A stretch of 64,000 nt of DNA from Vicinamibacterales bacterium (GTDB taxonomy: Bacteria > Acidobacteriota > Vicinamibacteria > Vicinamibacterales > JAMQPK01): positions 16,496-80,495 of the forward strand of contig DATEEI010000097.1 in NCBI GenBank assembly GCA_035281225.1. Direction: 5' to 3'. This document shows positions 15,692 through 64,000 of the stretch, one piece after another. The notes beneath the pieces are model-generated. The model was not told where the DNA came from. It saw nothing but the letters and a program-made list of their open reading frames with translations, and searched no databases. The stretch's first letter is position 1. Each line of letters begins with the position of its first letter. The translations under genes were made by a program, and so were the position numbers.

Positions 15692-15726
15692 CGTCGATCG
15701 TCGATCGTCGATTGTCGATCGTCAGT
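15692..15726. repeat. heptad array cgtcgat x3, tgtcgat, cgtcagt, filling the whole pilD-kinase spacer
   Basis: Read directly. 7-bp period from the base after the kinase start codon (15689-15691) into the pilD stop codon (15722-15724). Confidence 0.85.
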
Positions 15727-41744: not shown

Positions 41745-41772
41745 CAGCTGCCAGCTACCAGCTGCGAGCTTG
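41745..41772. repeat. heptad array cagctgc cagctac cagctgc gagcttg (left flank of the four-helix-bundle gene)
   Basis: Read directly. Begins 4 nt after the permease stop. Reverse complement of the array at 42224-42251. Confidence 0.8.
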
Positions 41773-41841
41773 CAGAGCGTCACGGCCCGAAAACTGCACC
41801 TCAGACTAGCCAGAATCGCTAGATATTCAGGAGGCTCTGCG

Positions 41842-42213
41842 ATGCAGGACTTCAAGAAGCTTGTGGTGTGGCACAAATCTCACAACCTGGTCTTGGACGT
41901 GTACGCAAAAACCGCAAGCTTTCCGAAGGCGGAGATGTTCGGCATCACCGCTCAGGTGCGACGCGCTTCGGTGTCGATCGCGGCGAACATCGCCGAGGGC
42001 AGCTCAACTGGGAGCGACAAGGAGTTTGCGCGCTTTCTGCGAGTCTCAGCCGCGTCTGCCAGCGAGGTCGAATATTTTTCGATCCTCGTCGTGGACCTCG
42101 GACTATTGGATGTGCGAGCGGCCGACCGATGGGGACGAGATGTATCTGAAATCAGACGAATGATCTTCGGACTATTAGGCACCTTCTCAAAGCCAAAGTC
42201 GCATCCGCCCTGA
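41842..42213 (+). CDS. four-helix-bundle protein (23S rRNA intervening-sequence / S23-like family)
   Basis: ATG 41842 is preceded by AGGAGG. 123 aa, MQDFKKLVVWHKSHNLVLDVYAKTASFPKAEMFGITAQVRRASVSIAANIAEGS..EVEY, which is typical of this family. Confidence 0.85.
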   Translation: MQDFKKLVVWHKSHNLVLDVYAKTASFPKAEMFGITAQVRRASVSIAANIAEGSSTGSDKEFARFLRVSAASASEVEYFSILVVDLGLLDVRAADRWGRDVSEIRRMIFGLLGTFSKPKSHPP

Positions 42214-42223
42214 ACCAAACCGG

Positions 42224-42251
42224 CAGCTGGCCACTGGTAGCTGGTAGCTGT
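42224..42251. repeat. heptad array cagctgg ccactgg tagctgg tagctgt (right flank, inverted relative to 41745-41772)
   Basis: Read directly. Ends at the sigma-factor stop codon (42252). Confidence 0.8.
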
Positions 42252-44273: not shown

Positions 44274-47200
44274 TCATTCGACCAACGGCCGAATTGTCGC
44301 TCTCGAAACGAAGCGGCTTCGGTACTGCTCGGAAAGCGAACTTCGAATCTGCGCAATGAGCTTCGTGGCAGAGGAACGTTCGGTGGCAGCCGCGATCGTT
44401 TCTCCTCGCCGCGCGAGCGCCAATCCGCGCCAATAGTGCGCTTGCGCGTTCAACTCAGGCCCGACCGTCACGCTCCCGAGCTCTAACGTGCGGAGGACTT
44501 TGGCATATTGCCGCTCCTGAAACTCCTTCCGCGCCCGTTGGAGCGCGCACTCGGCCCGCACGTGAGCCTTATGGAAGGATCTCAACGCTGCTGACTCCAC
44601 ACCAAGATAACATTGAGCTACCAACGTGGCGGCGCCAGGTACATCTCTCACGGCTGACGCGACCGCGTGCTGAAAATGCGTTCGTGCGGCGTCGGGTGAT
44701 CCGGACTCCAAAGAGAGCTCACCGAATGATTCGTACAGCTGCGGCGCAAGCCTCATTGCTCCGGTCGACTCGACCTGCGCCAGCGCCTGTTCGAGATGCT
44801 GCTTCGCACCGTCAAAGTCTCCCAGACGAACGAGCACACGGCCCAACGTGATGTGCACCTCAGGGACGCTGCTGTCAGAGGCCAGTGCGTCCACGAGAAT
44901 CGTGCGAGCGCCCTCGTAGTCGCTCTGCAGAACCGCGACGTCCGCCGTAGTAACTCTGAGCAACGTCAGCCGGTTCTTCAGGTCACGTTCCGTCGCTATG
45001 CTCGTCGCCTTCTGCAGAATTCGCCGCGCCTCAGCTAGACGGCCTGAAGCCGCTTCGCTCTCACCCTGAACCTGCATCGCAAAGACCTCAAAATCCGCGT
45101 AGCCCAGCTTGCGGAACGTGGCGAGCGCATTCGTGAGACGATGTGTGACCTCGGCGGGATCGAGCCCGAGCACAATCTGCAAATTCACCGCAGTCACTTC
45201 AAGCTCCGCAGCGCGGCGCTCGTTGCCTATCTGTCGGTAGACATCCCGGCTGCGCTCGTAATACGCGACCGCCTCGGAAGTGCGACCCATCGCTTCCTGA
45301 GCAACGCCGAGATTCATCAAGGCGACTCCCTCCAGACGTCGGTTTCCCACCTGCACGCCGCGGGAGAGAGCCTCCTGAAATGACTGCGCTGCCGCCGGGT
45401 AATTGGGTTCCCGAGCGGCTGCCAATCCAAGGTACTGATGGATCCGGGCAAGCCCATACGGGTAACCGAGCGATCTAAAGATCTCGTGCGCTGTCTCTAT
45501 TTCCGCTCTTCCTGCCTTCAAATTGCGCTGTTGGAGAAGTGCGTCAGCGTGACACAGTAGCGCTTGCGCTTCGCCCCCCCGATTGCCGGAAGTACGAAAA
45601 GCCCTCAGCGCGATTTGTGCGTGTCGCTCCGAGAGCGGATAGTCATCGAGAAAGGCGTATAGCTGACAAAGATCGACGTGCACACGTCGGTATTCAGGAT
45701 CGACCGCAAGCACGCGATGGTACGCTTCGACGGCAGGCTCGTTCCGGTTTTGTCTCTTAAGAAAATCAGCAAGTTCAATTTGCAGAGAGGGATCGTCGGT
45801 ATGGAGGCCACTCAACTCGCGGTAGAAGTGCTCCGCGCTTGTGAGATTGTTCTGGCTCTCCGCAAGAACGGCAGCGGCAAGGACAGCGCTGGATCTCGGC
45901 GTGTGGGCGCCAACGAGCTGGGATCCCGCTCTCGCCGCAGCCTCCGCGCCTTTCAGATCGCCCAATAGAAGTGACGTCTTGCTCAGCCATATGTAACTGA
46001 GAACGCGTTGCCCATCCAGCTCAACCGCGCGCATGAACGCGGCACGCGCGGTGCCATACTCCAGCTGTTCGTAGGCGTTCGAGCCCTCCTCGAACGCTCG
46101 AGCGGCCTCAAGCGTCGGGAAGCGCGCGGCTTCCGCGTTGGTCGTCGGTGGCCGATGCGGCCAATTGAGCTTGAACTGCGCCTGAATCCGCGAGGCCAGC
46201 GCCACCATCAATCGCTGAGCCGTCTCTTGGGGCAACGCCGAGGTGATGGAGTCGGTTCGGACGGTGGCGATATTTGTTCCGGTCTCCACATTCCGTACCT
46301 CCGCTTCCGCAACCCACGCTCCGTCGCGGTACTCGAGCGCTGGAACGATCAGAAATCTCACCCTGGCATCGCGGGCGATGGCTTGAATCGCATCCCGGCC
46401 TGATATGTCGCCGGCGCCGAGCAGATATCCGCGAAGAGCCTCAAGCAGACGCGAGTAAGTGGTAACACGCAGATTTGGCGAGTCCCGGAGTTCCCCGATC
46501 AACGATTGAGTCAGGGTCAACCGATACGCATCCAGAGCGCGCTCACCCGTATGATTCGCCACCGGCACGATAGCGATCGGCGTGCGGGGCAATGGCCTGG
46601 CGAGCCAGAGATAACCAGCGGCTGCACCGATGGCGAGCACGGTCGCTGCCACCACCACCGCCATCGTTCGCGAGCCACGCCGTATTCTTCCCTCTGCCCT
46701 CTCCCCTCTCCCCTCTCCCCTCTTCCCTCTTCCCTCTTCCCTCTGCCCTCTTCCCTCTTCCCTCTGCCCTCCCCCCTCCACCAGCACCGCTTCCGTCCGC
46801 ATGTCGAGCGGCATGCTGCGCCCTTGCAGGTGCCGCAACGCGCGGCAGAGGTCTCTGGCGTTCTGATACCGCTCGGCCGGATCCTTGGCGAGCGCGCGCC
46901 GGACGATCGGCACGATACCTTCAGGGAGGTCCGGCACCGTATCATCGAGCGGCGCAGGCTCCTCATTCTTGATAGCGTAGAACACCGCTTCCGGATAGGA
47001 CCCCTTGAACGGGCCGCCGCCCGTCAGCATTTCGTAGAGCACGACGCCGAGCGCCCAGATATCGCTGCGCTCGTCGGCTTCCTCGCCCCGCGCCTGCTCC
47101 GGCGACATGTACGCGACCGTACCGATCGTCGATCCTTCGAGCGTCAGCTTGAGCGCCGCGTCTGCAAGCTTCGCGAGCCCGAAGTCCAGAATCTTCACGC

Positions 47201-49897: not shown

Positions 49898-50488
49898 CTA
49901 GCCTGCCTTCTGCGGCGTGGTGCGCTTGGCGCTTCGCCCCTTCGTCTGGGCGGCGCGCGACGATTTCTTGCTGCCGGGATCGGCATCCTCGGAGCTCTTG
50001 CCACGCAGGCGATCCGCCGCCGCGCGGAGACGCCCGCCGACACCGGACTTCGGCTTGGGAGCCGCTGCCGCCTTCGTGTCTTTCGGCGCCGCCTTCGGAT
50101 CGTACTCGCTGCCGACGAGCTCGAGCTGCGCGAGCTCGGCACTGTCGCCGCGGCGGAAGCCGAGGCGCAGGATTCTCGTGTAACCGCCCGGCCGCTCGGC
50201 AAACCGCGGCGCGATGGTCTCGAACAGCTTACCGACTACGTCGCGATCGGCGAGCTCACGCGCGACAAGACGGCGCGCGTGGAGCATCTTGCCGTTGGTC
50301 TCGCCGCCAGCCAGGCCTCGCTTGGCGACCGTGATCAGCCGCTCGACGAACGGCCTCAACTCCTTGGCCTTCGGCACGGTGGTTTCGATATGCTCGTAGC
50401 GGATCAGCGCCGTCGCCTGATTGCGCAGCATGGCAACCCGGTGCTCGGTGACCCGCCCCAGTTTTCGATGTGCAACTCTATGACGCAT
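49898..50488 (-). CDS. rplQ: 50S ribosomal protein L17
   Basis: [53 protein letters not shown]. 196 aa, including a ~75-aa K/A/P-rich C-terminal tail. Confidence 0.95.
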
Positions 50489-50506
50489 GGTGTTCTCTCA
50501 ACGTGA

Positions 50507-51493
50507 CTATTCGGCCCGATTCGCAGCCGGCTGATCGATCCGCATGCCCAGGCTCAGGCCCATGCTGGTCAGGATCTCCTTGATCTCGTTCAGCGACTTG
50601 CGGCCGAAGTTCTTCGTCTTCAGCATCTCGCCTTCGGTCTTCTGCACGAGCTCACGGATGGTCCTGATGTTGGCGTTCTTCAGACAGTTATACGACCGGA
50701 CCGAGAGCTCCAGCTCTTCGACGCTCTTGTCGAGATTCTCGTTGAGCGATCCCGTCTGCTGCTGCTCGGCCTGCGCGTCGGTCTGATCGTCGGCCGATTC
50801 TTCCAGGTTGATGAAAATATTCAAATGGTCGCGCACGAGCTTCGCCGACAGCGAGATCGCGTCGCGCGGTGTAACCGATCCGTTGGTCCAGATATCGACA
50901 GTGAGCTTGTCGTAGTCGGTGGTCTGGCCGAGGCGTGCCGCCTCGACGAGGTAGTTCACCTTCTTCACGGGCGAGTGCACCGAGTCGATCGGGATCCAGC
51001 CGATGCCGAGATCCTCGTCGAAGTTCTTGTCGGCCGAGATGTAGCCGCGGCCGCGCTTCAGCCGCATCTCCATGTTGAGCTTGCCGCCTTCGGACACGGT
51101 CGCGATCTTGGCGTCCGGCTCCAGAATCTCCACGTCGCCGTCGGTCTGAATGTCGCGCGCCTTGACTTCGCCCGCCTTCTCGACGCGCAGATACAGCGTC
51201 TTCGTTGTATCGGTGTGCATCTTCAGCGGCACCTGCTTCAGGTTGAGGATGATGTCGGTCGCATCCTCGACCACGCCCGGAATGGGCGAAAACTCATGCA
51301 GCACGCCGTCGATCTTCACGGCGGTAATCGCCGCACCCTCGATGGAGGAGAGCAGCACGCGCCGCAGCGCGTTGCCGATGGTGGTGCCGAACCCGCGCTC
51401 GAATGGCTGGGCGTAGAACCGCCCGAAGCGATCCGTTAACGTTTCACGCTCTAACTCGAGCCGCTTCGGACGCTGAAAACCTTTCCACAACAT
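50507..51493 (-). CDS. rpoA: DNA-directed RNA polymerase alpha subunit
   Basis: 328 aa with NTD and CTD (..[24 protein letters not shown]..). Alpha operon position. Confidence 0.96.
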
Positions 51494-51609
51494 GTCGTAT
51501 GTCCTTCCCTACCGGCCTTGCGGCCTCAGACCTGCAAGTGTGATCACCGGCCTCCCACCGCAGGTCTGTAAGGCTGCGGGCCAGTGACTGGGTAAAGGGG
51601 TCTGACCCC

Positions 51610-52239
51610 TTATTTACTGTACAACTCCACGATGAGCTGCTCCTGCACGGGCAGATTGATCTGCTCGCGCGTCGGCAGCGAGGCGACTTTGCCCGAGAGC
51701 CCGTTCGGATCGAACGACAGCCACTCCGGAATGCCGCGGCCTTTCACTTCTTCAATCGCGTGCTGAATCGTCGGCGCCTGCCGGCTCGACTCGCGCACCG
51801 TGACGACATCACCTACACGGACCGAATAGGACGGCACGTCGACTTTCCGGCCGTTCACGAGGAAGTGGCCGTGCCGGACGAGCTGACGCGCCTGCGGCCG
51901 CGACGTCGCGAGGCCCAGCCGATAGGTAACGTTGTCCAGCCGGCGCTCGAGCAGCTGCAACAGCGTCTCGCCCGTGATGCCGCGCTGCCGTTCAGCCGAC
52001 TCGAAGTAGCGTCGGAACTGATCTTCGAGAACGCCATAGATGCGCTTGACCTTCTGCTTCTCACGAAGCTGAACGCCGTAGCCGACCATCTTGGCCTTCC
52101 GCGTCTTGCCGTGCTGCCCTGGCGGGAAATTGCGCTTCTCGATCGCGCACTTCTCCGTGTAACAGCGCTCTCCCTTGAGGAAGAGCTTCATGCCTTCTCG
52201 CCGGCAGAGCCGGCACACCGGACCTACGTATCGTGCCAT
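51610..52239 (-). CDS. rpsD: 30S ribosomal protein S4
   Basis: [26 protein letters not shown].., 209 aa. Confidence 0.96.
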
Positions 52240-52250
52240 TAATTGATCCT

Positions 52251-52285
52251 TCTCAGCTTCCAGCTGCCAGCTCTCAGCTGCCAGT
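52251..52285. repeat. heptad array tctcagc ttccagc tgccagc tctcagc tgccagt (rpsK-rpsD spacer)
   Basis: Read directly; 5 units with a 7-bp period. Confidence 0.85.
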
Positions 52286-52294
52286 GGAATTTAG

Positions 52295-52738
52295 TTATAC
52301 GCGTCGCCTCTTCGGCGGCCGGCAGCCATTGTGCGGAATCGGCGTGACGTCGCGAATCGACTTCACCTCAATGCCGATCGTCTGCAGCGCCCTGATCGCC
52401 GACTCGCGGCCTGAACCCGGGCCCTTCACGCGCACTTCAACCGAGCGCAGCCCCACCGTCTTCGCAACGTTGCCGGCAGCAATCGCGGCCTGGGTCGCGG
52501 CGAACGGCGTGCCCTTCCGCGAGCCCTTGAAGCCGACGCCGCCCGCGCTCGACCAGGCAATCACGTTCCCTTCGATGTCGGTGATCGTGATCATCGTGTT
52601 GTTGAACGACGCGTGGATGTGCGCGTAGCCGGTGTGCACGATCCGCTTCTCGCCACGCTTCTTGAACGTCTTGCGTGGCTTCTTCGCGCCCTTTTCGCCT
52701 TTTTCCGGTGCGGCGCCTTCTGCGTCAGTCTTGGCCAT
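52295..52738 (-). CDS. rpsK: 30S ribosomal protein S11
   Basis: ..[45 protein letters not shown].. 147 aa with a K/E-rich N-terminal extension. Confidence 0.96.
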
Positions 52739-52753
52739 CTGTTTCTTCGCTCC

Positions 52754-52830
52754 TAGCTACCAGCTACGAGCCACCAGCTACCAGCAGGTTCCAGCGAAAA
52801 CTGGAAGCTGGCAGCTGAAAGCTGGCAGCT
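52754..52830. repeat. heptad arrays tagctac cagctac gagccac cagctac cagcagg, then the inverted ctggaag ctggcag ctgaaag ctggcag (rpsM-rpsK spacer)
   Basis: Read directly. Central perfect hairpin ttccag-cgaaaa-ctggaa at 52789-52806. Confidence 0.85.
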
Positions 52831-53203
52831 ATTCAACCTTCTTCTTCGCGACCGCGCCCTTGCGCGGTCCTTTGCGCGTCCGTGCGTTGGTGCGCGTGCG
52901 CTGGCCGCGGACCGGCAGCGCTCGGCGGTGACGCCCGCCGCGGTAGCTGCCGATTTCCATCAGCCGCTTGATGTTCAGCGAAATCTCCTTCCGGAGGTCG
53001 CCTTCGACGCCGCCCTGCTCCTCGAGCACGCGGCTGATCTTGCGTACGTCGTCCTCGGACAGATCCTTCACGCGGATGTCAGGACTGACCCCCGCCTCCG
53101 TGAGAACCTTGTTCGATCGGTGCCGCCCGATACCGTAAATGTAGGTGAGGCCGATTTCGACCCGCTTCGTGCGCGGGAGATCGACTCCAGCAATTCTCGC
53201 CAT
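52829..53203 (-). CDS. rpsM: 30S ribosomal protein S13
   Basis: [26 protein letters not shown].., 124 aa. Confidence 0.96.
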
Positions 53204-53213
53204 AACTCTTTGT

Positions 53214-53255
53214 CCTCGACTGTCGACTGTCGACTACCGACTGCCGACTGTTAAC
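53214..53255. repeat. heptad array cctcgac tgtcgac tgtcgac taccgac tgccgac tgttaac (rpmJ-rpsM spacer)
   Basis: Read directly. The last unit contains the rpmJ stop codon (53251-53253). Confidence 0.85.
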
Positions 53256-53364
53256 CCTGCCTCTGCTTGTGTTTCTGGTTCGAGCAGATTACGCGAACCA
53301 CTCCGCGCCGGCGGACGATCTTGCACTTATCGCAGATGCGCTTGACTGACGCTCGTACCTTCAT
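53251..53364 (-). CDS. rpmJ: 50S ribosomal protein L36
   Basis: Not in the ORF track (37 aa). Manual translation gives [37 protein letters not shown], with the CxxC..C..H zinc ribbon. The 5' 38 nt overlap the map 3' end. Confidence 0.92.
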
Positions 53365-54139
53365 TGTCTCGTTCCTTCGCTGGCGCGCGCTGCAGAAGAG
53401 AGAGCACATCTGCACCGTCCGCCGTTACTGCAACCGTGTGCTCGAAATGGGCCGACAGGCTGCGATCCGACGTGATCGCGGTCCATCCGTCCTTCAGCAC
53501 CTTGACGCCGGCTTCTCCCAGGTTGACCATCGGCTCAATCGCGAGCACCATGCCTTCAGCCAGCCGCGGGCCGCGCCCCGGGTCCCCATAGTTCGGAATC
53601 TGCGGTTCTTCATGCAACTCGGCGCCGATGCCGTGTCCCACGAACTCACGCACCACCGAAAACCCAAACTTCTCCACGTGGCTTTGAACCGCGTGGCCGA
53701 GGTCGGACACACGCGCTCCTGGTCGAACCACTTCGATCGCCTTCCACAGCGCCTCTTCCGTTACGCGAAGCAAATCGGCTGCCTTCGGCGAAATACTGCC
53801 AATCCCAACCGTCACCGCAGAGTCTCCAAAAAACCCGCCCATCTTTGCGCCCAGGTCGATCGAGATGATGTCACCCTCGCGCAACGCGACCTTCGCCGAC
53901 GGGATTCCGTGCACGACCTGCTCATTCACCGACGCACAAATCGTCGCGGGGTATCCTTTGTAGCCCTTGAACGCAGGCACCGCACCACCTGCGACAATCC
54001 CTCGCTCGGCCAGCGCATCGAGATCTTCCGTCGTCACCCCAGGTGCCGCCGCCTCGCGCAGCTGTTCGAGCACGTGACCGACGAGCTGATTCACCTCACG
54101 CAGACGCTTTAGCTCAGCGGCCGATCGACAGACGATCAC
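53327..54139 (-). CDS. map: type I methionine aminopeptidase
   Basis: 270 aa. ..[10 protein letters not shown].. and metal ligands (D..D..H..E..E pattern). 4-bp overlap with adk. Confidence 0.94.
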
Positions 54140-54801
54140 GGCCGCCGTCCCGACGCAACCGGGACCATAGCATCGATGCCTGCCGCCAGATCAGCCGCAA
54201 CCCGATCCGGTGCCTGCGCGCCGTTGATCGATCGAAACGTTGGGCGCCCGCGATAGTAATCCAGCAGCGGCTTACTCTCCCGCGCGTACACCTCGAGCCG
54301 GTGCTGCCTCACGTGCTCGTCTCCGTCGTCCGCGCGGGTGATCATGCGTCCCCCACAGCGCTCGCACTTTTCCCTGTCGATCGAGTCTGGCTCGGCAATC
54401 GACGCGCATTGACTGCACACGCGGCGCCCTTCCATCCGGTGCAACAGCTCCTCATCGGGCACTGCCAAATCGACGATGACCAGCGGCACTCCCTGCAACA
54501 TGCGGTCGAGGGCCTGCGCCTGAGGAACCGTCCGGGGGAACCCGTCGAGGATGTAGCCCCTGGCGGTATCCGGGCGCTCCAGCCGCTCCTTCACGATGCC
54601 GACCATCTCGTCGTCCCCAAGCAGCTCTCCACGATCCATCAGCGCTTTGGCTCGCAAGCCAAGCTCGCTGCCTCCGGCAGCTGCCTCGCGCAGGATGTCG
54701 CCGGTCGAGATCTTCGGGATGCTTCTCGCCAGTGCCAGTCGAACGGCCTGCGTACCCTTACCCGACGCGGGCGGTCCCAACATGACCACATTGAGCGCCA
54801 T
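54136..54801 (-). CDS. adk: adenylate kinase (zinc-lid type)
   Basis: GPPASGKGTQA P-loop. Lid CSQC..CERCGG. 221 aa. Confidence 0.95.
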   Translation of the reverse strand: MALNVVMLGPPASGKGTQAVRLALARSIPKISTGDILREAAAGGSELGLRAKALMDRGELLGDDEMVGIVKERLERPDTARGYILDGFPRTVPQAQALDRMLQGVPLVIVDLAVPDEELLHRMEGRRVCSQCASIAEPDSIDREKCERCGGRMITRADDGDEHVRQHRLEVYARESKPLLDYYRGRPTFRSINGAQAPDRVAADLAAGIDAMVPVASGRRP

Positions 54802-56199
54802 CTATGCGCGCCGTCCACGGATCCGAGTCTTCTTCATGAAGCCGTCATAGTGCCTCATGATGAGCTGCGATTCGACCTGCTGAATCGTGTCCATCGCGAC
54901 GCCGACGATGATGAGCAGCGTGGTACCGCCGAAGATGAACGTGACACCCATGCCTTCGGTGATGAACCTCGGCAGAATGGCATCGAGTCGTTCGCCGATA
55001 AAAGGAATCGGCGCGACGCGGAAGCCGGTAATCAGAAAGTCCGGCAGAATCGCGATCAACGCGAGGTACACGGCGCCGGCCAGCGTGATGCGCGTCAGGA
55101 TCGTATCGATGTACTCGGCGGTCCGCTTGCCCGGCCGGATTCCCGGCACGAACCCACCGTACTTCCTCATGTTTTCAGCCACATCATCGGGATTGAAGAT
55201 GATGGCGGTGTAGAAATACGCGAAGAAGATGATCAGCGTGATGTAGAGCAGGACGTAGAGCGGCATGCCCATCTGCAGCTGATCGGTCACACGCATAATC
55301 CAGTGACCCGGATCGCTCGCGAACATCTGCCCAATCGTTGCCGGAAACGCCAGAATCGACGACGCAAAGATGACGGGGATGACGCCGCCGGTATTCACCT
55401 TCAGCGGAATGTGGGTGCTGGCCCCTCCGTACATCCGGCGTCCGACCACCCGCTTGGCATACTGCACCGTGATCCGCCGGCTCCCGCGCTCCACGAAAAT
55501 AATCGCCGCCACGACCAGTACCATCACCGCGAGCAGCAGGATGAGCCGGATCAGCCCCATCTGGCCCGTTCTCAGCTGATCGAACGTGGTAATCACGGCT
55601 GTCGGCAGGCCGACCACGATACCCGCATAAATAATGAGGGACATGCCGTTGCCGATGCCCCGCTCGGTGATCTGCTCGCCGAGCCACATGATGAGCGTCG
55701 TGCCTGTCGTCAGCGTCAGCACCGTGAGGAGACGGAATCCCCAGCCGGGGTTATAGACGAGCGGCAACCCGCCGGCAATCTCTGTCGAGCGCTCCAGCCA
55801 GATCGCAATGCTCAGTGCCTGTACGACGCTGAGCAGGATGGTGCCGTATCGCGTGTACTGCGTGATCTTCCGGCGTCCGAGCTCGCCTTCGTTCTTGATG
55901 CGTTCGAGGTACGGCCAGACCACAGTCAGCAGCTGCAGGATGATCGACGCGCTGATATACGGCATGATGCCGAGCGCGAAGATCGTCATCCTCGAGAGGT
56001 TCTGTCCCGAGAACATGTCGTAGAGACCGAACATCGTGCTGCGCGCCTGCTCGGCCAACTGGGCGAGCGCCGCCGTGTTCACGCCGGGGGTCGGAATGTG
56101 ACCACCGATGCGATACACGATGAGCAGTGCAAGCGTGAAGAGCACGCGCTTGCGGAGCTCGGCGATGGCGAACAGGTTCTTGACGCTGTCGATAGCCAT
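54802..56199 (-). CDS. secY: preprotein translocase subunit SecY
   Basis: 465 aa with 10 TM helices. Typical ..GIMPYISASIILQLL.. and spc operon position. Confidence 0.96.
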   Translation of the reverse strand: MAIDSVKNLFAIAELRKRVLFTLALLIVYRIGGHIPTPGVNTAALAQLAEQARSTMFGLYDMFSGQNLSRMTIFALGIMPYISASIILQLLTVVWPYLERIKNEGELGRRKITQYTRYGTILLSVVQALSIAIWLERSTEIAGGLPLVYNPGWGFRLLTVLTLTTGTTLIMWLGEQITERGIGNGMSLIIYAGIVVGLPTAVITTFDQLRTGQMGLIRLILLLAVMVLVVAAIIFVERGSRRITVQYAKRVVGRRMYGGASTHIPLKVNTGGVIPVIFASSILAFPATIGQMFASDPGHWIMRVTDQLQMGMPLYVLLYITLIIFFAYFYTAIIFNPDDVAENMRKYGGFVPGIRPGKRTAEYIDTILTRITLAGAVYLALIAILPDFLITGFRVAPIPFIGERLDAILPRFITEGMGVTFIFGGTTLLIIVGVAMDTIQQVESQLIMRHYDGFMKKTRIRGRRA

Positions 56200-56204
56200 G
56201 TTTC

Positions 56205-56648
56205 TTACAGGGTTTCTGCGGCTCCGCCGGCTGCCGCAATCTTCTCGGCGGCCTTGCCGCTGAACTTATGCGCGCGAATCGTGAGCCCCTTGGTGATCTC
56301 GCCGCGACCAAGCACCTTGACGCGCTCGGCCGATGGCGGGATGAGCCGGCGCTCTCGAAGCAAATCCAGCGTGACCACAGTGCCGGCATCGAATCGCTCG
56401 CCGAGCGTGTCGAGATTCACGACGGCGTACTCGACGCTGAACGGGTTATGGAACCCGCGCTTCGGCACACGACGCTTGAGCGGCATCTGGCCGCCTTCGA
56501 ACCCGCGCTTGCGCTTGAACCCCGAGCGCGATTTCGCACCCTTGTGTCCCCGTCCCGCCTGCGTGCCTTGACCGGTGCCGTGGCCGCGGCCGACGCGCTT
56601 CTTGGAGTGCTTCGCGCCCTTGGGCGGCTTGAGATTTGAGAGATCCAT
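56205..56648 (-). CDS. rplO: 50S ribosomal protein L15
   Basis: MDLSNLKPPKGAKHSKKRVGRGHGTGQGTQAGRGHKG.., 147 aa. Confidence 0.96.
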   Translation of the reverse strand: MDLSNLKPPKGAKHSKKRVGRGHGTGQGTQAGRGHKGAKSRSGFKRKRGFEGGQMPLKRRVPKRGFHNPFSVEYAVVNLDTLGERFDAGTVVTLDLLRERRLIPPSAERVKVLGRGEITKGLTIRAHKFSGKAAEKIAAAGGAAETL

Positions 56649-56650
56649 CG

Positions 56651-56857
56651 TTATTGCACCTCGAGGAGGTGACGAACCTTGTGAATCATGCCCCGTATCG
56701 ACGGCGTATCCGCCAGCTCGACCGTGTGGCGAATGCGGCGCAGGCCAAGGCTTTCGACCACCGCCGCCTGCTTCCTGCCGAATCCAATCGTGCTCTTCAC
56801 GAGCGTCACTTTGACGCGCTTGGTATCGGCCTGTTTCTTCGCTGCTTTTTTAGCCAT
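56651..56857 (-). CDS. rpmD: 50S ribosomal protein L30
   Basis: ..VKVTLVKSTIGFGRKQAAVVESLGLRRIRHTVE.., 68 aa. Confidence 0.93.
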   Translation of the reverse strand: MAKKAAKKQADTKRVKVTLVKSTIGFGRKQAAVVESLGLRRIRHTVELADTPSIRGMIHKVRHLLEVQ

Positions 56858-56861
56858 AACC

Positions 56862-56939
56862 CTTCGTCGTGTTCCCTGTTGCTTCGTGCTCTTCGTGCCT
56901 TCGTGATGCTTCGTGTCTTCGTGGTCAGTGTCTTCGTGG
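56862..56939. repeat. six exact CTTCGTG copies plus one degenerate copy (rpsE-rpmD spacer)
   Basis: Exact copies start at 56882, 56891, 56899, 56909, 56917 and 56932 (spacing 8-15 nt). The degenerate copy cttcgtc is at 56862. Confidence 0.85.
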
Positions 56940-57461
56940 TTACTTCGACACCATCTCCTCGAGATCCTTACCGCGCAATCTCGCGACGGACGAAGGCTCC
57001 TTGAGGTTCTCGAGCCCGTTGAACGTCGCCCGCACCACGTTGTGCGGATTCGCAGAGCCGAGTGATTTCGTCAGCACGTTGTGCAGGCCGGCCGCCTCCA
57101 CCACCGCGCGCACGGCGCCGCCGGCGATGATGCCGGTGCCGTCCGGCGCCGGCTTCAGCAGCACGCTGCCCGATCCAAACGTACCGACCACGGTATGCGG
57201 AATCGTCGTCCCCTGCAGCGGCACCCGGATTAATCCCTTCTTGGCCGACTCGATGCCCTTCTTGATGGCCGACGGCACTTCCTTCGCCTTGCCGACACCG
57301 AAACCCACAACGCCGTGGCCGTCGCCGACGACGACCAGCGCGCTGAAGCTCAGGTTCTTGCCACCTTTGACGACCTTCGTGACGCGGTTGATCGACACCA
57401 CGGTGTCCTTGATGTCGAGCTGGGCCGGATCGATCTTTTCGCGAACTCGCTGAATAGCCAC
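56940..57461 (-). CDS. rpsE: 30S ribosomal protein S5
   Basis: ..[42 protein letters not shown].. 173 aa, GTG start sharing 1 nt with the rplR stop. Confidence 0.96.
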
Positions 57462-57835
57462 TAGAACTCCAGTCCTGCTTTACGCGCCGCATCGGCGACC
57501 GCCTGAATCCGGCCGTGGTACAGGTAGCCGTTGCGATCGAAAACCACTTTAGTGATGCCCTTGTCTTTGAGGCGCTGCGCGATCGTCTGTCCGATGAGTT
57601 CCGCGCCGGCTTTGTTGTTGCCGCGCGTCTTGCCCTTCAGTCCCGACTTGACCGCCGCTTCGGTGGTCCCGGCCGACGCGACGGTCTTGCCCGTCATGTC
57701 GTCGATGACCTGCACGTAAATGTGCGACGAGCTTCGATAGACAGTCAGCCGCGGGCGATCCTGATCGCCGGCGATGCGCTTGCGCAGTCGAAGCTTGATG
57801 CGATAACGCCGATCTTCTCTCGTCTTGATACGCAT
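57461..57835 (-). CDS. rplR: 50S ribosomal protein L18
   Basis: ..[48 protein letters not shown], 124 aa. Confidence 0.96.
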
Positions 57836-57845
57836 AGTCTGTTCG

Positions 57846-57901
57846 CTCTTGGCTCTAGGCTTTGGGCTCTCGGCCTTGGGCCTGCCCTCATCCCTCTGCC
57901 C
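57846..57901. repeat. eight-unit heptad array ctcttgg ctctagg ctttggg ctctcgg ccttggg cctgccc tcatccc tctgccc (rplF-rplR spacer)
   Basis: Read directly. The last 20 nt (gccctcatccctctgccct) repeat the motif of 4600-4626. Confidence 0.85.
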
Positions 57902-58440
57902 TACTTGGTTCCCGTCTTGCCGGCTTTCTTCTTCAGCACTTCGCCGGTGAAGCGCACGCCCTTCTGCTTGTAGGGATCCGGTTGGCGCAGTCGGCGGATG
58001 TTGGCGGCGACCTGCCCCACCAACTGGCGATCAACGCCGGTGACGGTGATGTGCGTCTGCTTATCGATCACGATGTCGATGCCGGGCGGTACGTCGAACA
58101 CGACCGGATGCGAGTAGCCGAGCGCAAAGACGACCTGCTTGCCGCGCAGCTCAGCACGATAGCCGACGCCGACGATGTCGAGCTCGCGCTTGAACCCTTC
58201 GGTCACACCGAGCACACCGTTGGCAGCGAGGCTGCGCGCGAGGCCGTGGAACTTGCCGAGCTCGGGATCCTCGCGCGTAAGCGCGGCCTTGAGCTGGCCG
58301 TCGACAACCTCGAAGGCGATGCCCGGCGGAATCCGCTGCGTCAGCTTGCCTTTCGGTCCCTGAATATCCAGCGCGTCCGGGTTCACCTTGACGGTGACGC
58401 CCTTGGGCAGCGCGATCGGTTTTTTACCAATACGTGACAT
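57901..58440 (-). CDS. rplF: 50S ribosomal protein L6
   Basis: [19 protein letters not shown].., 179 aa. Confidence 0.96.
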
Positions 58441-58445
58441 GTTTT

Positions 58446-58473
58446 TTCAGCTCTCAGCTACCGGCTCAACAGT
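58446..58473. repeat. heptad array ttcagct ctcagct accggct caacagt (rpsH-rplF spacer)
   Basis: Read directly; 4 units. Confidence 0.75.
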
Positions 58474-58892
58474 TACCAAATATTGCACAGCACTTCGCCG
58501 CCGACGCCGGCGCGCATGGCGGCGCGGCCGGTCATCACGCCGCGCGACGTGGTCAAAATGCTCGTGCCGAGGCCGCCAAGCACCGGCGGCACGTCGGTGC
58601 TGCGGAAGTACACGCGGCGCCCGGGCCGGCTAATGCGCTCGAGGCCTGTGATGACCTTTTCGCCGTGCGGCCCATATTTCAGAAAGATGCGGACCATCTG
58701 GCGCGGCGCGACGGCTTTGGCCGCCTCAGGCGATTTCTCGTCGACGAGCTTGAAGCCCTGGATGTACCCCTCGTCCTCGAGAATGCGCGCAATCTCCACC
58801 TTGAGCTTCGAGGCGGGGACGTCCACTCGGGAATGCTTGGCGATGACGGCATTCCGGAGGCGCGTGAGCATATCGGCAATCGGGTCTGTCAT
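58473..58892 (-). CDS. rpsH: 30S ribosomal protein S8
   Basis: MTDPIADMLTRLRNAVIAKHSRVDVPASK.., 139 aa. Confidence 0.96.
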   Translation of the reverse strand: MTDPIADMLTRLRNAVIAKHSRVDVPASKLKVEIARILEDEGYIQGFKLVDEKSPEAAKAVAPRQMVRIFLKYGPHGEKVITGLERISRPGRRVYFRSTDVPPVLGGLGTSILTTSRGVMTGRAAMRAGVGGEVLCNIW

Positions 58893-58925
58893 GTGTTGGT
58901 TCTCTACTCGTTCACTGTTTCTGTT

Positions 58926-58999
58926 CCAGCCGGTAGCTTGTAGCTCGTAGCCTGTAGCGAGCCTTTCCTACCGCCTACCAGCTACCACCTACCAACTAC
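58926..58999. repeat. heptad arrays gtagctt gtagctc gtagcct gtagcga, then the inverted ctaccgc ctaccag ctaccac ctaccaa (rpsN-rpsH spacer)
   Basis: Read directly. About 11 units in strict 7-bp register; GTAGC and CTACC(GCTAC)-type halves face each other. Confidence 0.85.
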
Positions 59000-59174
59000 T
59001 CTTTGTCACTCCCGCGACGTCGCCCTGCAGCGCCAGCTTGCGGAAGCAGAGGCGGCAGAGCGCGAACTTGCGAAGGTAGGCCCGCGGCCGGCCGCACAGG
59101 TGGCAGCGGTTCCGCAGGCGGACCTTGAATTTCGGAGCCTTGTGTTCCTTGGCGATCTTTGCTGTAGTGGCCAT
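58989..59174 (-). CDS. rpsN: 30S ribosomal protein S14, zinc-binding type Z
   Basis: 61 aa with [22 protein letters not shown]. Confidence 0.94.
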
Positions 59175-59176
59175 AC

Positions 59177-59728
59177 TTATCTCTGTTCCTGAGCTCTGAA
59201 CGGCATCCCAATCAACTGAAGCAGCTTGCGCGCTTCTTCATCGGTCCGCGCGCTGGTGACGACCGAGACGTTCATGCCGCGCGCTTTGTCCACCTTCATG
59301 TAGTCGATTTCCGGAAACAGCAGCTGATCCTTGAGCCCGAGCGTGAAATTGCCCCGGCCGTCGAACCCCTTGGGCGACACGCCGCGAAAATCGCGCACGC
59401 GCGGGAGCGCGATCGTCACGAGGCGGTCGAGGAACTCGTACATCCGGTCGCCCCGCAGCGTCACGCTGGTCGCAATCGGCTGTCCCTTGCGCACCTTGAA
59501 GGCGGCGATCGACTTCTTCGCGCGGCGCACGACGGGCTTCTGCCCCGTGATGCGTGCGAGCTCGTCGGCGCCCACCTCGATGATCTTGGCATTCGAGGTC
59601 GCCTCGCCGAGGCCCATGTTCACGACGACCTTCTGGATCTTCGGGACGGCCATCACGTTCTTGTAGCCGAACTCTTTCTTGAGCGCCGGCACGACTTCCT
59701 TGACGTAGCGATCTCTCAGGCGGCTCAT
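59177..59728 (-). CDS. rplE: 50S ribosomal protein L5
   Basis: The real start, ATG 59726-59728, overlaps the rplX stop. [39 protein letters not shown].., 183 aa. Confidence 0.95.
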
Positions 59729-60057
59729 TTGTCGACCACTCCCTCGCACTTCCGGCAGATGCGGACCTTGCGGCCGTCGCCGAGAATCTTGCGGCCGATG
59801 CGCGTCTGCGCGCCGCATTCAGGGCACAGGAGCTGGACGTTCGACGCGTGCAGCGACGCTTCCCGCTCGACGATGCCCCCCTTGACGTTTCGCTGCGGGT
59901 TCGGCTTCGTGTGGCGTTTGATCATGTTCACGCCCTCGACCACGAGCCGGTTCTTCGCAGGGACGACCTTCAACACACGTCCGCGCTTGCCGCGGTCCTT
60001 GCCCGCGATCACGAGGACGTTGTCGTTCTTCCGAATGGGACTCTGCAATAAAGACAT
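59725..60057 (-). CDS. rplX: 50S ribosomal protein L24
   Basis: ..[24 protein letters not shown].. KOW motif, 110 aa. Confidence 0.95.
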
Positions 60058-60061
60058 ATAA

Positions 60062-60128
60062 ACCGTCTACCGTTTGCCGTTTACTGTTTGCCGTTCGGTG
60101 AACGGTGAACTGTCAACGGTGAACTAAC
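60062..60128. repeat. heptad arrays accgtct accgttt gccgttt actgttt gccgttc, then the inverted ggtgaac ggtgaac tgtcaac ggtgaac (rplN-rplX spacer)
   Basis: Read directly. Central hairpin ccgttc-ggt-gaacgg. Confidence 0.85.
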
Positions 60129-60496
60129 TACAGCACCTCAGGTGCAAGCGAAATAATCTTCATGAACCGGCGCTCGCGCAGTTCGCGAGCCACCGGTCCG
60201 AACACGCGCGTGCCGATCGGTTCGCGCTGGTCGTTGATCAGCACGGCCGCGTTGCGATCGAAGCGGATATAGCTGCCGTCCTTGCGGCGCTGCTCCTTCA
60301 CCGTCCGGACGATCACCGCTTTCACGACCTGGCCTTTCTTGACGGTGCCGTCGGGGATGGCTTCCTTCACCGACGCCGTGACGACATCGCCGAGACGCGC
60401 GTAGCGCCCGGTCGAGCCGCCAATCGGATTGATGACCGCGATCTTGCGCGCACCGGAGTTGTCGGCGACGTCGAGGATCGATCGCATCTGAATCAT
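60128..60496 (-). CDS. rplN: 50S ribosomal protein L14
   Basis: [22 protein letters not shown].., 122 aa. Confidence 0.96.
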
Positions 60497-60499
60497 GGC

Positions 60500-60754
60500 T
60501 TAGACCTCCAGCGCCTTTCGGATGACGCGCGTGAGGACCCACCGCTTGCGCTTGCTCAGCGGCCGGCTCTCGACAATGGCGACGCGATCGCCGATCTTGG
60601 CGGTGTTCTCCTCGTCGTGCGTCACGAACTTCGACGTCCGACGCTGGGTTTTGCCGTAGAGCCCGTGCCGCACCTGCCACTCGACAGCGACGACGCAGGT
60701 CTTCTGCATCTTGTTGCTGACGACGACGCCTTCCTTCTCAGATTTCTCAGCCAT
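60500..60754 (-). CDS. rpsQ: 30S ribosomal protein S17
   Basis: ..[40 protein letters not shown].., 84 aa. Confidence 0.95.
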
Positions 60755-60767
60755 GTGCTTCTATGCT

Positions 60768-60837
60768 CTCCGTTTACCGTTTGTCGTTCGCCGTTGACCG
60801 TGTCGCACGGTGCACGGTTGACCGTCAACGGTCAACG
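60768..60837. repeat. heptad arrays ctccgtt taccgtt tgtcgtt cgccgtt gaccgtg, then tcgcacg gtgcacg gttgacc gtcaacg gtcaacg (rpmC-rpsQ spacer)
   Basis: Read directly. Same CCGTT/AACGG family as 60062-60128, with palindromes accgtgtcgcacggt and cgttgaccgtcaacg. Confidence 0.85.
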
Positions 60838-61029
60838 CTTCCGTTGTTTCTCCGTCATGATCGTCTTGATGCACGCCAGGTCCCTGCGCGTATGGCGCAG
60901 CTTCAGCGGCGCATCGAGCTGCCCGAGCGACTGCTGAATGCGCATCCGGAACAGCTGATCCTCGAGCTCTTTCGCGCGCGATTCCAGATCGTCCACAGAA
61001 AGATCGCGCAGTTCCGCCACGTCCATCAT
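60832..61029 (-). CDS. rpmC: 50S ribosomal protein L29
   Basis: The real start, ATG 61027-61029, overlaps the rplP stop (ATGATG). [38 protein letters not shown].., 65 aa. Confidence 0.93.
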
Positions 61030-61451
61030 GACGCTTTCTCCTCGGCGAACCGGGTCGCGAACTTCGTGAGGATGGGCAGCTTCGACGCCGCCAGCCGCAG
61101 CGCTTCGCGCGCCTCGGTCTGGGTCACCCCTTCCATCTCGAACAAAATCCGTCCCGGCCGCACCACGCACACCCACTGGTCCGGCGCGCCTTTGCCCTTG
61201 CCCATTCGCGTTTCCTGCGGCTTCTTGGTAATCGGCTTGTCAGGAAACACGCGCACCCAGATCTTGCCGCCGCGCTTGATGAACCTCGTCATCGCGACGC
61301 GGGCCGCCTCGATCTGCCGGTCGGTCAGCCAGCACGGCTCCATCGCACGGAGTCCGAAGTCTCCGAACGACACGTCGGAGCCGCGCCACGCTTTGCCCTT
61401 CATGCGGCCGCGTTGCTGCTTCCGGTACTTGACCTTCTTCGGCATTAACAT
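61026..61451 (-). CDS. rplP: 50S ribosomal protein L16
   Basis: [21 protein letters not shown].., 141 aa. Confidence 0.96.
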
Positions 61452-61555
61452 TTCGTTATCCCTCGTGGGGCCCCACCCCCACTCGGCTGCCGTCGCTTAC
61501 GCTCCGGATCTTGTTGCGATCAATCCGGTGCTTGGTGACGGACGCTGTCTGAGCT

Positions 61556-61583
61556 AATCCCTAGTCCCGAATCACCAATCCCT
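61556..61583. repeat. heptad array aatccct agtcccg aatcacc aatccct (end of the rpsC-rplP spacer)
   Basis: Read directly. The 11-mer aatcaccaatc also occurs at 3365-3375. Confidence 0.7.
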
Positions 61584-62286
61584 ACGCTCGCGCCTCGCGC
61601 GGCCCCGATGGCCGGCGTGGAGCACGCTCCCTGAATTCCTGTTCCTCGCGCGCCGTCTTCGGTGTCAGGCGCTCGCCCTTATAAAGCCACGTCTTGACGC
61701 CGATCTGACCGTATGTCGTGCTCGCCTCGGCGAACCCGTAATCGATGTCCGCCCGCAGCGTCTGCAGCGGCAGCTGCCCGTGCAGGTACCACTCGGAACG
61801 CGCGATCTCCGCGCCATTGAGGCGCCCCGACACGCGCACCTTGATACCCCGCGCGCCGAACCGCAGCGCCGATTCAACCGCTTTGCGCATCGCACGGCGA
61901 AACGCCACGCGCTTCTCGAGCTGCTGGGCCACCGACTCCGCGATGAGCTGCGCGTCGAGCTCCGGCTTCTGAATCTCCTGGATGTTGATGAACACCTCGC
62001 GGTTCGTCCGCTTCTGGATTTCGGCCTTGAGCTTCTCGACCTCCGTCCCCTTGCGGCCGATGATGATGCCCGGCCGGGAAGTATGAATGTCGATCTTCAG
62101 CTTGTTGGCCGCGCGCTCGGTCTCAATTTTGGCGACGCCGGCGTGCGCGAACCGCTTCTTGAGGTCGGCGCGCAACGCCAGATCCTCGTGGAGCAGCTTC
62201 GCGTAGTCGCGATCGGCGAACCAGCGCGACTTCCACGTCTTGTTGAACCCGAGCCGAAATCCGTACGGATGTACTTTTTGACCCAC
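61582..62286 (-). CDS. rpsC: 30S ribosomal protein S3
   Basis: GTG start after [30 protein letters not shown].., 234 aa. Confidence 0.96.
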
Positions 62287-62295
62287 AGCAGCTCC

Positions 62296-62353
62296 TCGTT
62301 ACTTCTTACTTCTTACTTCTTACTTCCCACTTCTTACTTTTCGTGCTTCTTAC
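62296..62353. repeat. heptad array tcgttac ttcttac x3 ttcccac ttcttac ... ttcttac (rplV-rpsC spacer, extending into the rplV 3' end)
   Basis: Read directly. The unit containing tta (62334-62336) supplies the rplV stop codon, and the array continues about 17 nt into the coding sequence (..KSKKHEK). Confidence 0.85.
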
Positions 62354-62828
62354 TTTTCGCGGCCGTTTTCTTCGCCGGCGTCGCACGCTTGCGTACGGGT
62401 GTCGTCGCCGTCTCTCCGGCCTCAGGTTTCGCCTTGGCCGTCCGGCCCTTCGGCGCCGGTGTCGCCACCGCCGCAATCGCCAGCGGCCGCTCCGATACGC
62501 GCACTGTCAGATGCGCGGTGCGCTTCACGACACGGAACGCCCGGCCCATCGGGGCAGGACGAATTCGCTTCATCGACGGCCCCTGGTTGGCGTAGCACGC
62601 CGAGACGAACAGACGATCGACGTCGCCGCCGAAGCCTTCCTTCTGCTGCGCGTTGGCAATCGCCGATCGCAGCAGCTTGGCGATGTCGTGTCCGATCCCC
62701 TTGCGCGTGAACAGCAGTGTAGCGAGCGCACGATTCACATCGCGCCCGCGGATCAAATCCATCACCAGTCCGGCCTTCTGAGCCGACGTGCGGACGTACT
62801 TCGCTGTCGCGTGAGCTTCAATCGCCAT
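62334..62828 (-). CDS. rplV: 50S ribosomal protein L22
   Basis: MAIEAHATAKYVRTSAQKAGLVMDLIRGRDVNRAL.. 164 aa, including a ~50-aa A/K/T/P-rich C-terminal tail. Confidence 0.95.
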   Translation of the reverse strand: MAIEAHATAKYVRTSAQKAGLVMDLIRGRDVNRALATLLFTRKGIGHDIAKLLRSAIANAQQKEGFGGDVDRLFVSACYANQGPSMKRIRPAPMGRAFRVVKRTAHLTVRVSERPLAIAAVATPAPKGRTAKAKPEAGETATTPVRKRATPAKKTAAKSKKHEK

Positions 62829-62831
62829 GGA

Positions 62832-63164
62832 CTAGCCCCCCGCCTTCGCCCCGCCGCCACCAGCGGCGGGCGGCGCCGCGGCGGCCACCTGCGCGGCCTT
62901 TTCCGTCTTGGTCGTGTGTCCCTTGAACTGGCGGGTCGGCGAGAACTCGCCCAGCTTCTGCCCCACCATGTTTTCGGTCACGTACACGGGGATGAATTTC
63001 CTGCCGTTGTGTACCGCGAGCGTGTGTCCCACCATTTCGGGAATCACGGTCGAGCGGCGCGACCAGGTCTTCACCACTTTCTTCTCGTTATCGCGATTCA
63101 TCGCCTCGATCTTCTCGAGGAGCGGCGTATCAACGAACGGTCCCTTTTTCAGTGATCGGCTCAT
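62832..63164 (-). CDS. rpsS: 30S ribosomal protein S19
   Basis: Real start ATG 63162-63164. [52 protein letters not shown]. 110 aa with an A/G-rich tail. Confidence 0.95.
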
Positions 63165-63172
63165 AACAACTC

Positions 63173-64000
<828 letters not shown>

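Follow-up and report, generated by a model that had tools for sequence, protein, structure and literature searches.

Short tandemly repeated repetitive (STRR) heptamers of heterocystous cyanobacteria were reportedly described by Mazel et al. in 1990. Intergenic heptamer repeats that occur in convergent pairs are represented by (GGGAATC)n in Xanthomonas campestris and X. citri and by GGGGA(C/T)T in Nostoc (Rehm et al. 2015, PMC4692102, where a report on Calothrix STRR is also cited). Each Xanthomonas genome contains 70 to 75 convergent pairs of GGGAATC repeats, and most of the repeats are transcribed (PMC4692102). The TAACTGA repeats of Beggiatoaceae are almost all direct, with 1 inverted case in 170 sets, and are located just upstream of start codons (PMC4679880). 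The general excess of heptamers has been attributed to slippage (Mrazek et al. 2007, as cited in PMC4679880). Heptamer repeats and convergent pairs as such are, then, already published. Here, we analyze a 64,000-nucleotide (nt) stretch of DNA from a Vicinamibacterales bacterium (Acidobacteriota; assembly GCA_035281225.1, contig DATEEI010000097.1, positions 16,496 to 80,495 of the forward strand), referred to below as the window, in which four spacers of a ribosomal-protein operon are each occupied by two facing arrays of reverse-complementary heptads. We found no paper on such repeats in Acidobacteria, with many unit families and inside ribosomal-protein operons.

The second described system to which these elements can be compared is the intervening sequence (IVS) of 23S rRNA. 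The Coxiella IVS combines a stem, an open reading frame (ORF) for S23p, and heptamer repeats that vary among strains, and its stem is cut by RNase III in vitro (PMC4990558). ORF-bearing IVS with S23p are present in Coxiella burnetii and Leptospira, ORF-less ones in Salmonella; as in our case, a stem of inverted termini encloses a loop in which a gene of the PF05635/S23p family is optional. PF05635 proteins resemble Avd, the accessory protein of diversity-generating retroelements (PMC10053308). Beyond the heptamers of the Coxiella IVS, we found no paper linking heptamer repeats to PF05635. As argued below, the operon elements are probably gene-less, IVS-like heptad palindromes that belong to a genome-wide class and are made at the DNA level; they do not appear to be regulatory structures specific to ribosomal proteins.

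The hairpin in the S14-S8 (rpsN-rpsH) spacer is located at window positions 58933 to 58999 on the minus strand. Its left arm (58933 to 58960) consists of four GTAGCNN units (gtagctt, gtagctc, gtagcct, and gtagcga), the loop is formed by the odd unit gcctttc (58961 to 58967), and the right arm (58968 to 58999) contains 4.5 CTACCNN units (ctaccgc, ctaccag, ctaccac, ctaccaa, and ctac). All units, the odd one included, start at 58933 + 7k. Both flanking genes, S14 (58989 to 59174) and S8 (58473 to 58892), are on the minus strand, and the S14 stop codon (58989 to 58991) lies within the last heptad of the hairpin. Three further minus-strand spacers have the same layout. In the L14-L24 hairpin (60062 to 60128), five units of NCCGTTT type precede four of GGTGAAC type, and the center reads ccgttc-ggt-gaacgg; the L29-S17 hairpin (60768 to 60837) is built from CCGTTNN-type and then NNAACGG-type units around cacggtg; and the S13-S11 hairpin (52754 to 52830) contains 4.4 AGCTACC-type units, the loop ttccag-cgaaaa-ctggaa, and 4.3 CTGGNAG-type units. 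In all four spacers, the two facing complementary arrays share one unbroken 7-nt register, each arm is called as a period-7 array by Tandem Repeats Finder (TRF), and there is no ORF inside. An earlier sequence-only reading had described facing half-arrays of reverse-complementary heptads in a shared 7-bp register at 58926 to 58999 and had pointed to the other three sites as further cases; units and centers read as it claimed.

The sense (minus-strand) RNA of each spacer was folded with RNAfold and compared to 200 dinucleotide shuffles. The predicted folding energies were -39.1 kcal/mol for S14-S8 (z = -4.17), -24.2 kcal/mol for L14-L24 (z = -2.35), -29.4 kcal/mol for L29-S17 (z = -1.99), and -53.1 kcal/mol for S13-S11 (z = -5.61), so the long hairpins expected from the sequence are predicted beyond shuffled controls in all four spacers. 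The plus strand gave z values of -3.23, -4.55, -2.67, and -3.52 in the same order. The sequence-only reading also proposed a helix broken every 7 nt. This was observed in the S14-S8 hairpin, where 1 × 1 mismatches are spaced 7 nt apart, but not in the S13-S11 hairpin, which is interrupted approximately every 14 nt, nor in the genome as a whole: over 53 hairpins, the lag-7 autocorrelation of unpaired positions was 0.07, and most stems were nearly continuous.

The same architecture, built from unrelated primary sequences, is a real and recurrent feature not only of the four spacers but of the entire genome, a 4.19-Mb draft with 62% G+C. The S8 protein assigns this genome to the Vicinamibacterales (Acidobacteriota). 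TRF returned 654 rows of period 7. Periods 6 and 8 gave 161 and 252 rows, and periods 14 and 21 gave 201 and 101, respectively. Heptads thus exceed neighboring periods genome-wide, which matches the over-representation that characterizes known heptanucleotide simple-sequence repeats. The 642 arrays with a 7-nt consensus span 23.7 kb. Most are noncoding (70% of period-7 arrays compared to 10 to 27% for periods 3, 6, 9, and 12, with coding status taken from a crude gene call on third-position G+C). After greedy clustering, ~11 unit families held most arrays, the largest being ACCAGCT (92 arrays), AGAGGGC (74), AAGAAGT (62), ACTCTGG (54), and ACGACTG (51); single-linkage clustering merged all units into one cluster.

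Adjacent arrays, defined as those no more than 40 nt apart, were reverse-complementary at at least 5 of 7 positions in 71 of 81 pairs (88%) and at at least 6 of 7 positions in 57 of 81, compared to ~12% of random pairs at the former threshold. At the median, the 71 paired hairpins were 80 nt long, had 31 predicted pairs, and folded with a z of -6.5; 92% of them were below -3. Their stems are imperfect, 25 to 35 bp long, and in principle long enough for RNase III. The arm size mode was 4 to 5 units, loops were 9 to 22 nt long, and the lengths of the two arms correlated (rho = 0.47, p = 4e-5). Compared to unit-shuffled arms, mirror-register complementarity was in small excess (mean z = 0.46, Wilcoxon p = 8e-4; p ≤ 0.05 in 8% of pairs). 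A fixed polarity, with the G-rich arm 5′ and the C-rich arm 3′, was considered and rejected as a mere bias, since 46 hairpins open with the G-rich arm and 25 with the C-rich arm.

These numbers bear on the view that the elements are plain microsatellites: slippage alone would fill the neutral space between stop codon and ribosome-binding site, palindromic seeds would give rise to arms, PF05635 genes would land or survive there, and the RNA would have no role. In many bacteria, heptamers outnumber all other long simple-sequence repeats, and slippage is the proposed cause (Mrazek 2007, cited in both PMC4679880 and PMC4692102); ~500 arrays of this genome are single-armed, and the weakness of mirror-register complementarity also agrees with this view. 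On the other hand, the 88% reverse-complementarity of adjacent arrays and the correlated arm lengths do not follow from it. Slippage alone leaves convergent pairing unexplained, and we regard the microsatellite view as unlikely; further evidence on it is given below.

The hairpins have a characteristic position. They start a median of 3 nt past the upstream stop codon (interquartile range, -1 to 18), and among 65 hairpins assigned to a spacer type, 41 were in co-directional, 17 in convergent, and only 7 in divergent spacers, while 21% divergent would be expected from spacer length. They therefore sit in non-promoter spacers directly behind stop codons, and they spare ~30 nt ahead of the next start codon. 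In this and other respects, they are similar to the Xanthomonas and Nostoc repeats (PMC4692102), which also have a 7-nt unit with ~4 units typical, are intergenic, lie within a few nt of the upstream stop codon or overlap it, are seldom found between divergent genes, and form many convergent pairs capable of making stem-loops. The difference is that essentially one G-rich unit was studied in Xanthomonas, as a G-quadruplex former, whereas at least 11 families are present here, most of them incapable of forming quadruplexes. No link to PF05635 is mentioned in that paper, whose text contains neither “S23” nor “xcc0516.” STRR and TAACTGA repeats are likewise tandem 7-nt units, abundant, intergenic, and patchily distributed across phyla; unlike TAACTGA repeats, the arrays described here follow stop codons and are often paired.

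Stable GC-containing stems downstream of stop codons could be taken for intrinsic terminators or attenuators within the operon. However, none of the seven terminator-like sites in the 51500 to 63500 region is on an array, no U-tract is present behind the stems, and the stems separate co-transcribed essential genes; we consider this explanation hardly credible.

We next compared the operon in 16 genomes of the same genus (S8 identity, 88 to 98%). The length of orthologous spacers varied between 0 and 160 nt. L14 and L24 are separated by 70 nt in this genome and by 133 nt in G008, and the closest relative (G012) has no gap between them (0 nt); the S13-S11 spacer is 90 nt here, 2 nt in five genomes, and between 2 and 39 nt in several congeners. 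A heptad hairpin is present in the S14-S8 spacer of most species, with differing units: GGTAGNN here and in G018, CAGTTNT in G016 and G008, and CAGCTNT in G013, G005, and G004. The S14-S8 spacer of G012 contains two non-complementary arrays, and that of G015 contains a single GAAGTAA arm together with GC-rich hairpins. Conservation in this spacer is limited to the final ~30 nt ahead of the S8 start. Copy number and sequence thus vary between related genomes, as they do in known heptanucleotide repeats. Compensatory changes, to which the sequence-only reading had looked for a sign of selected structure, did not appear in orthologous spacers; replacement, gain, and loss were found instead. No compensatory substitutions supporting one structure were present in the spacers of the 16 congeners, where it is the architecture that persists; there is no evidence of covariation because both spacer lengths and unit families turn over between congeners. 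The class is made and remodeled at the DNA level, with arrays that grow, shrink, and get replaced between congeners. The free variation of array lengths and units among congeners also agrees with the microsatellite view.

Several side observations concern the same spacers. In the S14-S8 spacers of G002 (L108) and G015 (L109), one heptad arm is accompanied by GC-rich GGGGCCCCGCGAG-type hairpins, and the L22-S3 spacer of G002 (L108) contains a unit of ~75 nt in three tandem copies. At the 3′ end of the S14-S8 spacer, both in the window (58893 to 58925) and in congeners (L103 to L117), an (A)GAGAAC motif rather than a GGAGG Shine-Dalgarno sequence is located 8 to 12 nt upstream of the S8 ATG. The motif is genus-wide and may be an unusual translation-initiation signal.

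We also asked how the two strands of the hairpins compare. For the 41 co-directional hairpins, the sense strand folded better than the antisense strand by a mean of 2.3 kcal/mol (23 hairpins versus 18, p = 0.048), and G-U pairs numbered 117 in sense and 82 in antisense RNA, a hint of a weak RNA-level constraint. This slight sense-strand advantage and G-U excess would fit selected cis-acting RNA elements of ribosomal operons, whether processing sites, insulators of translational coupling, or stabilizers that tune cistron stoichiometry. So would the strong predicted stems at many cistron junctions, the ~30-nt translation-initiation region that is left intact, and junctions that keep one unit family, such as L30-L15, which keeps the GGGATTA family in six species. 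Such elements are nevertheless improbable as an explanation. The same elements occupy hundreds of unrelated spacers, convergent ones included; one and the same junction can lack an element in one congener and hold unrelated units in another; entire families of the order are devoid of such elements; and neither covariation nor an Rfam match was found. The Rfam 15 covariance search, which covered the 50000 to 64000 region, gave as its sole match a chance psaA hit of 19.2 bits against a threshold of 50.

The arms are also linked to PF05635 genes. In the window, a PF05635/TIGR02436 cassette on the plus strand (41745 to 42250) consists of a CAGCTNC left arm (41745 to 41770), a gene with an AGGAGG site (41842 to 42213), and a CTGGTAG right arm (~42224 to 42250). 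The protein, a four-helix bundle, matches Pfam PF05635 with E = 5.4e-32 and TIGR02436 with E = 1.3e-30, and its best Protein Data Bank match is Xanthomonas XCC0516 (2GSC; E = 2.7e-14). It belongs to the same four-helix-bundle superfamily as Avd and gives a weak match to NF033474 (E = 7.8e-4), but its score of 19.7 bits is far under the NCBIfam cut-off of 80; no reverse transcriptase or template/variable repeats were seen beside the cassettes, although no systematic search for them was made.

The genome contains 10 PF05635 matches, 9 of which have a period-7 array within ~160 nt. Reverse-complementary arrays were present on both flanks of 7 of the 10 copies compared to 6 of 809 other genes of at most 170 amino acids (binomial p ~ 1e-13), and the arms of PF05635 copies belong to at least eight unit families. 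With their tandem heptamers, these seven genes, the window copy included, have the build of the Coxiella IVS. The differences from 23S rRNA IVS are that the elements described here are in mRNA spacers between protein-coding genes, not in rRNA helices 25 or 45, that the focal four contain no ORF, and that entire arms are heptad arrays instead of containing a few units. Conserved rRNA motifs were not found in this assembly, so there is no 23S of its own for comparison. The microsatellite view leaves unexplained the enrichment of arms around PF05635 genes (7 of 10 versus 0.7%).

A tree of 34 PF05635 copies from 19 genomes of the genus contained clades that track the unit families (GGTAG-, ACGG-, AGGCTTC-, GACTG-, and AGGGATT-type). 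This match mostly reflects co-inheritance at syntenic loci. At a locus ~16 kb from S8, two combinations occur at orthologous sites, AGCT-type arms around genes of one protein subclade and ACGG-type arms around genes of another, and GGTAG-clade copies in G003 and G006, which are not linked by their flanks to the main GGTAG locus, have GGTTGGT arms. In several genomes, the PF05635 gene has the opposite orientation with respect to its conserved neighbors while the arms remain in place (L120, L127, L128, and L134 compared to L093; L141 compared to L094; and L145 compared to L096). The arms therefore behave as inverted repeats that recombine in DNA, and the enclosed gene has been flipped repeatedly. 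Gene-linked arms were only modestly stabler than solo operon arrays (mean unit match of 5.25 versus 4.77, p = 4e-4), and some solo arrays, such as GGGATTA, are kept in at least six congeners.

A site between genes for an M20 peptidase and a VOC-family protein could be compared in 17 genomes with readable upstream sequence. Nine of them have the PF05635 gene with its arms. In G002, the gene is truncated and the arms are closer together, ~210 nt apart; in G031, a lone arm adjoins the VOC gene; and six genomes have neither gene nor arms (for one of these, G015, the upstream sequence amounts to 425 nt only). The PF05635 gene and its arms are thus gained or lost as one unit. The joint absence of arms and gene at empty orthologous sites is not what slippage in neutral space would produce. 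A PF05635-like fragment was also observed beyond the window (C97:94126-94429; E = 2.9e-8 with a genus profile). It is flanked by a CTAGTCG array and a CGACTAT array with only 223 nt between them and probably represents one more cassette in decay.

The elements are intergenic palindromes whose presence varies among orthologous sites, and in this they resemble miniature transposable elements of the MITE (miniature inverted-repeat transposable element) or REP (repetitive extragenic palindromic) type that are moved by a transposase encoded elsewhere. Yet neither the element sequence nor the ends are conserved, with at least 11 unrelated unit families and variable unit numbers; no target-site duplication was seen at arm edges in the focal-spacer and 41745 to 42250 sequences read; and the arms are internally periodic, unlike known MITE and REP. 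On the criteria of sequence and ends, and with no search made for a transposase or RAYT, we rejected this type of element, which we consider very improbable. CRISPR elements were also rejected.

To see how the arrays and PF05635 genes are distributed, we scanned 80 genomes found via S8. Operon loci rich in period-7 arrays were present in other Vicinamibacterales, in Thermoanaerobaculia, in many Pyrinomonadaceae and Blastocatellia, in two Anaerolineae-type Chloroflexota, and in one Nitrospirota; in the same scan, they were not seen in three other Vicinamibacterales, Bacillota, and most other groups. In a panel of 50 genomes, PF05635 was found in 24 of 24 array-rich genomes (at least 5 rows of period 7, 14, or 21 in the operon locus) and in 7 of 26 array-poor ones (at most 2 rows), with a Fisher p of 2e-8 and a Spearman coefficient of 0.67. 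Eleven sister families of the order were also considered: two array-rich genomes have 8 and 4 PF05635 copies, and five genomes without PF05635 have no heptad arrays containing AT. Overall, 26 of 26 array-rich genomes tested carry PF05635, which the microsatellite view does not account for.

The arms of PF05635 genes need not be heptads. G028 has six PF05635 copies but lacks operon arrays; of the five genes fetched from it, four lie between complementary inverted tandem arrays. In G028 (L158 to L162) and G024 (L166 to L168), which represent other families of the order, the arms have periods of 7, 8, 9, and 11 and of 7 and 20, respectively; for example, the period-8 arms are CGTTCAAG and CCTTGAAC, and the period-9 arms are GGGCGAGTG and CTCGCCC... 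The architecture of the arms around PF05635 genes is constant, while the period is variable, and the inverted tandem arms in these two genomes therefore look intrinsic to the PF05635 cassette. The occurrence of arms with periods of 7 to 20 even where operon arrays are absent is a further point against plain microsatellites.

The sequence-only reading had left the choice between selection for structure and a common generating mechanism. The latter is better supported, because the architecture is genome-wide, occurs in several phyla, and turns over among congeners, and because the same arms bracket PF05635 cassettes; we found no evidence for the former in the sense of a particular RNA structure selected in the ribosomal operon.

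A number of observations weigh against the reading of the operon elements as gene-less relatives of PF05635 cassettes. The arms are not true position-by-position mirror copies of each other, a notion that we rejected given the small mirror-register excess. The statistics of the association between PF05635 and arrays ignore phylogeny. Several genomes have PF05635 but no operon arrays, and PF05635 is therefore at most necessary, not sufficient. Position between matching arrays was rejected as a trait exclusive to PF05635: the genes for Hsp20 (C109:18613-19061), L21 (C43), L9 (C80), and S11 are also bracketed by matching arrays because both of their adjoining spacers are filled, which is why the background rate of 6 in 809 was measured, and caution is warranted in that not every array-bracketed gene is cargo. 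No PF05635 gene was found in the ribosomal-operon loci of ~110 genomes examined, so it is by inference that we derive the focal hairpins from a cassette. Last, no PF05635 copy of the draft assembly has arms that match either of two large unit families, AGAGGGC (74 arrays) and AAACGGT (31 arrays), a lack of cognate genes that also agrees with the microsatellite view; the AAACGGT family builds two of the four focal hairpins.

With these points taken into account, we still favor the reading of the operon elements as gene-less, IVS-like palindromes, which would be generated as follows. Heptad arrays would grow by slippage during replication, the mechanism proposed for heptamer simple-sequence repeats. 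Each element comprises two convergent arrays of ~4 to 5 complementary 7-nt units separated by a 9- to 22-nt loop. The operon copies may be ORF-less relatives of the PF05635 cassette, either decay products or by-products, and would relate to it as ORF-less 23S rRNA IVS relate to ORF-bearing ones. One path from a cassette to a gene-less hairpin does exist, as evidenced by the G002 intermediate with its truncated gene. Since the hairpins are located inside an operon, they are likely transcribed. In the polycistronic mRNA, the imperfect 25- to 35-bp stems might then be cut by RNase III in the manner of IVS stems, a suggestion made by analogy with the Coxiella IVS; stems that escape the enzyme would be passive stem-loops between cistrons. 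The genome encodes RNase III (C109:7373-7756).

A broader and more tentative proposal, which we put forward as a possibility only, is that PF05635 (the S23p/Avd family) is the functional partner of tandem-repeat palindromes. Gene and arms would form a transposase-free cassette in which a protein pentamer reads or maintains arms of ~5 units, with paralogs dedicated to individual unit families, and gene-less hairpins and single arrays, those of the operon included, would be its non-autonomous offspring.

Other arrays in the window are as follows. Within the operon, minus-strand spacers contain single-arm arrays of CAGCTGC (4.4 units, 52254 to 52284, S11-S4) and TCGACTG (5.1 units, 53216 to 53251, L36-S13), a TRF-called heptad or 14-mer array of GCTCTAG type (57845 to 57881, L6-L18), and 5.9 TTACTTC units at 62299 to 62355 in the L22-S3 spacer, which enter the 3′ end of the L22 ORF (62334 to 62828). 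The S11 gene is bracketed by AGCT-type arrays (52254 to 52284 and 52801 to 52830), both adjoining spacers being filled. Elsewhere, with no strand assigned, a two-armed element at 4487 to 4624 is composed of 3.4 AGAGGGC units (4487 to 4510) and 4.1 TCTGCCC units (4596 to 4624) with 85 nt between them; TRF also detected a single heptad array of 4.9 ATCGTCG units (15690 to 15723) and the longest array of the window, with 12.3 TCTTCCC units (46686 to 46771). A second, non-heptad family consists of a GC hairpin, GTCCGGC-TAAA-GCCGGAC or GCCGGCC-TGAA-GGCCGGC, followed by CACTACGA. It includes a perfect 31-nt tandem duplication at 28723 to 28781, is also present in operon spacers of congeners (S13-S11 in L103; L14-L24 in L106 to L108), and looks REP-like.

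Of the long microsatellites that lie between bacterial genes, heptamer repeats are the commonest, and since 1990 there has been no accepted account of their origin and function. The genome described here represents an extreme form of the class, with ~11 unit families and with hairpin insertions in an essential operon whose spacers would normally be very tight, and the comparative evidence indicates that the arms are recombining inverted repeats that travel with a small conserved gene of the PF05635 family. For annotation, this is a warning that such spacers are repeat insertions and not conserved regulatory RNAs. Two questions become testable: whether RNase III cuts the stems in ribosomal mRNAs and what this does to cistron ratios, and whether PF05635 proteins bind or generate the repeats. 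If the proposed partnership is real, it would cover the heptamer excess, as in cyanobacterial STRR and Xanthomonas GGGAATC repeats, the IVS of 23S rRNA, and an orphan protein family.

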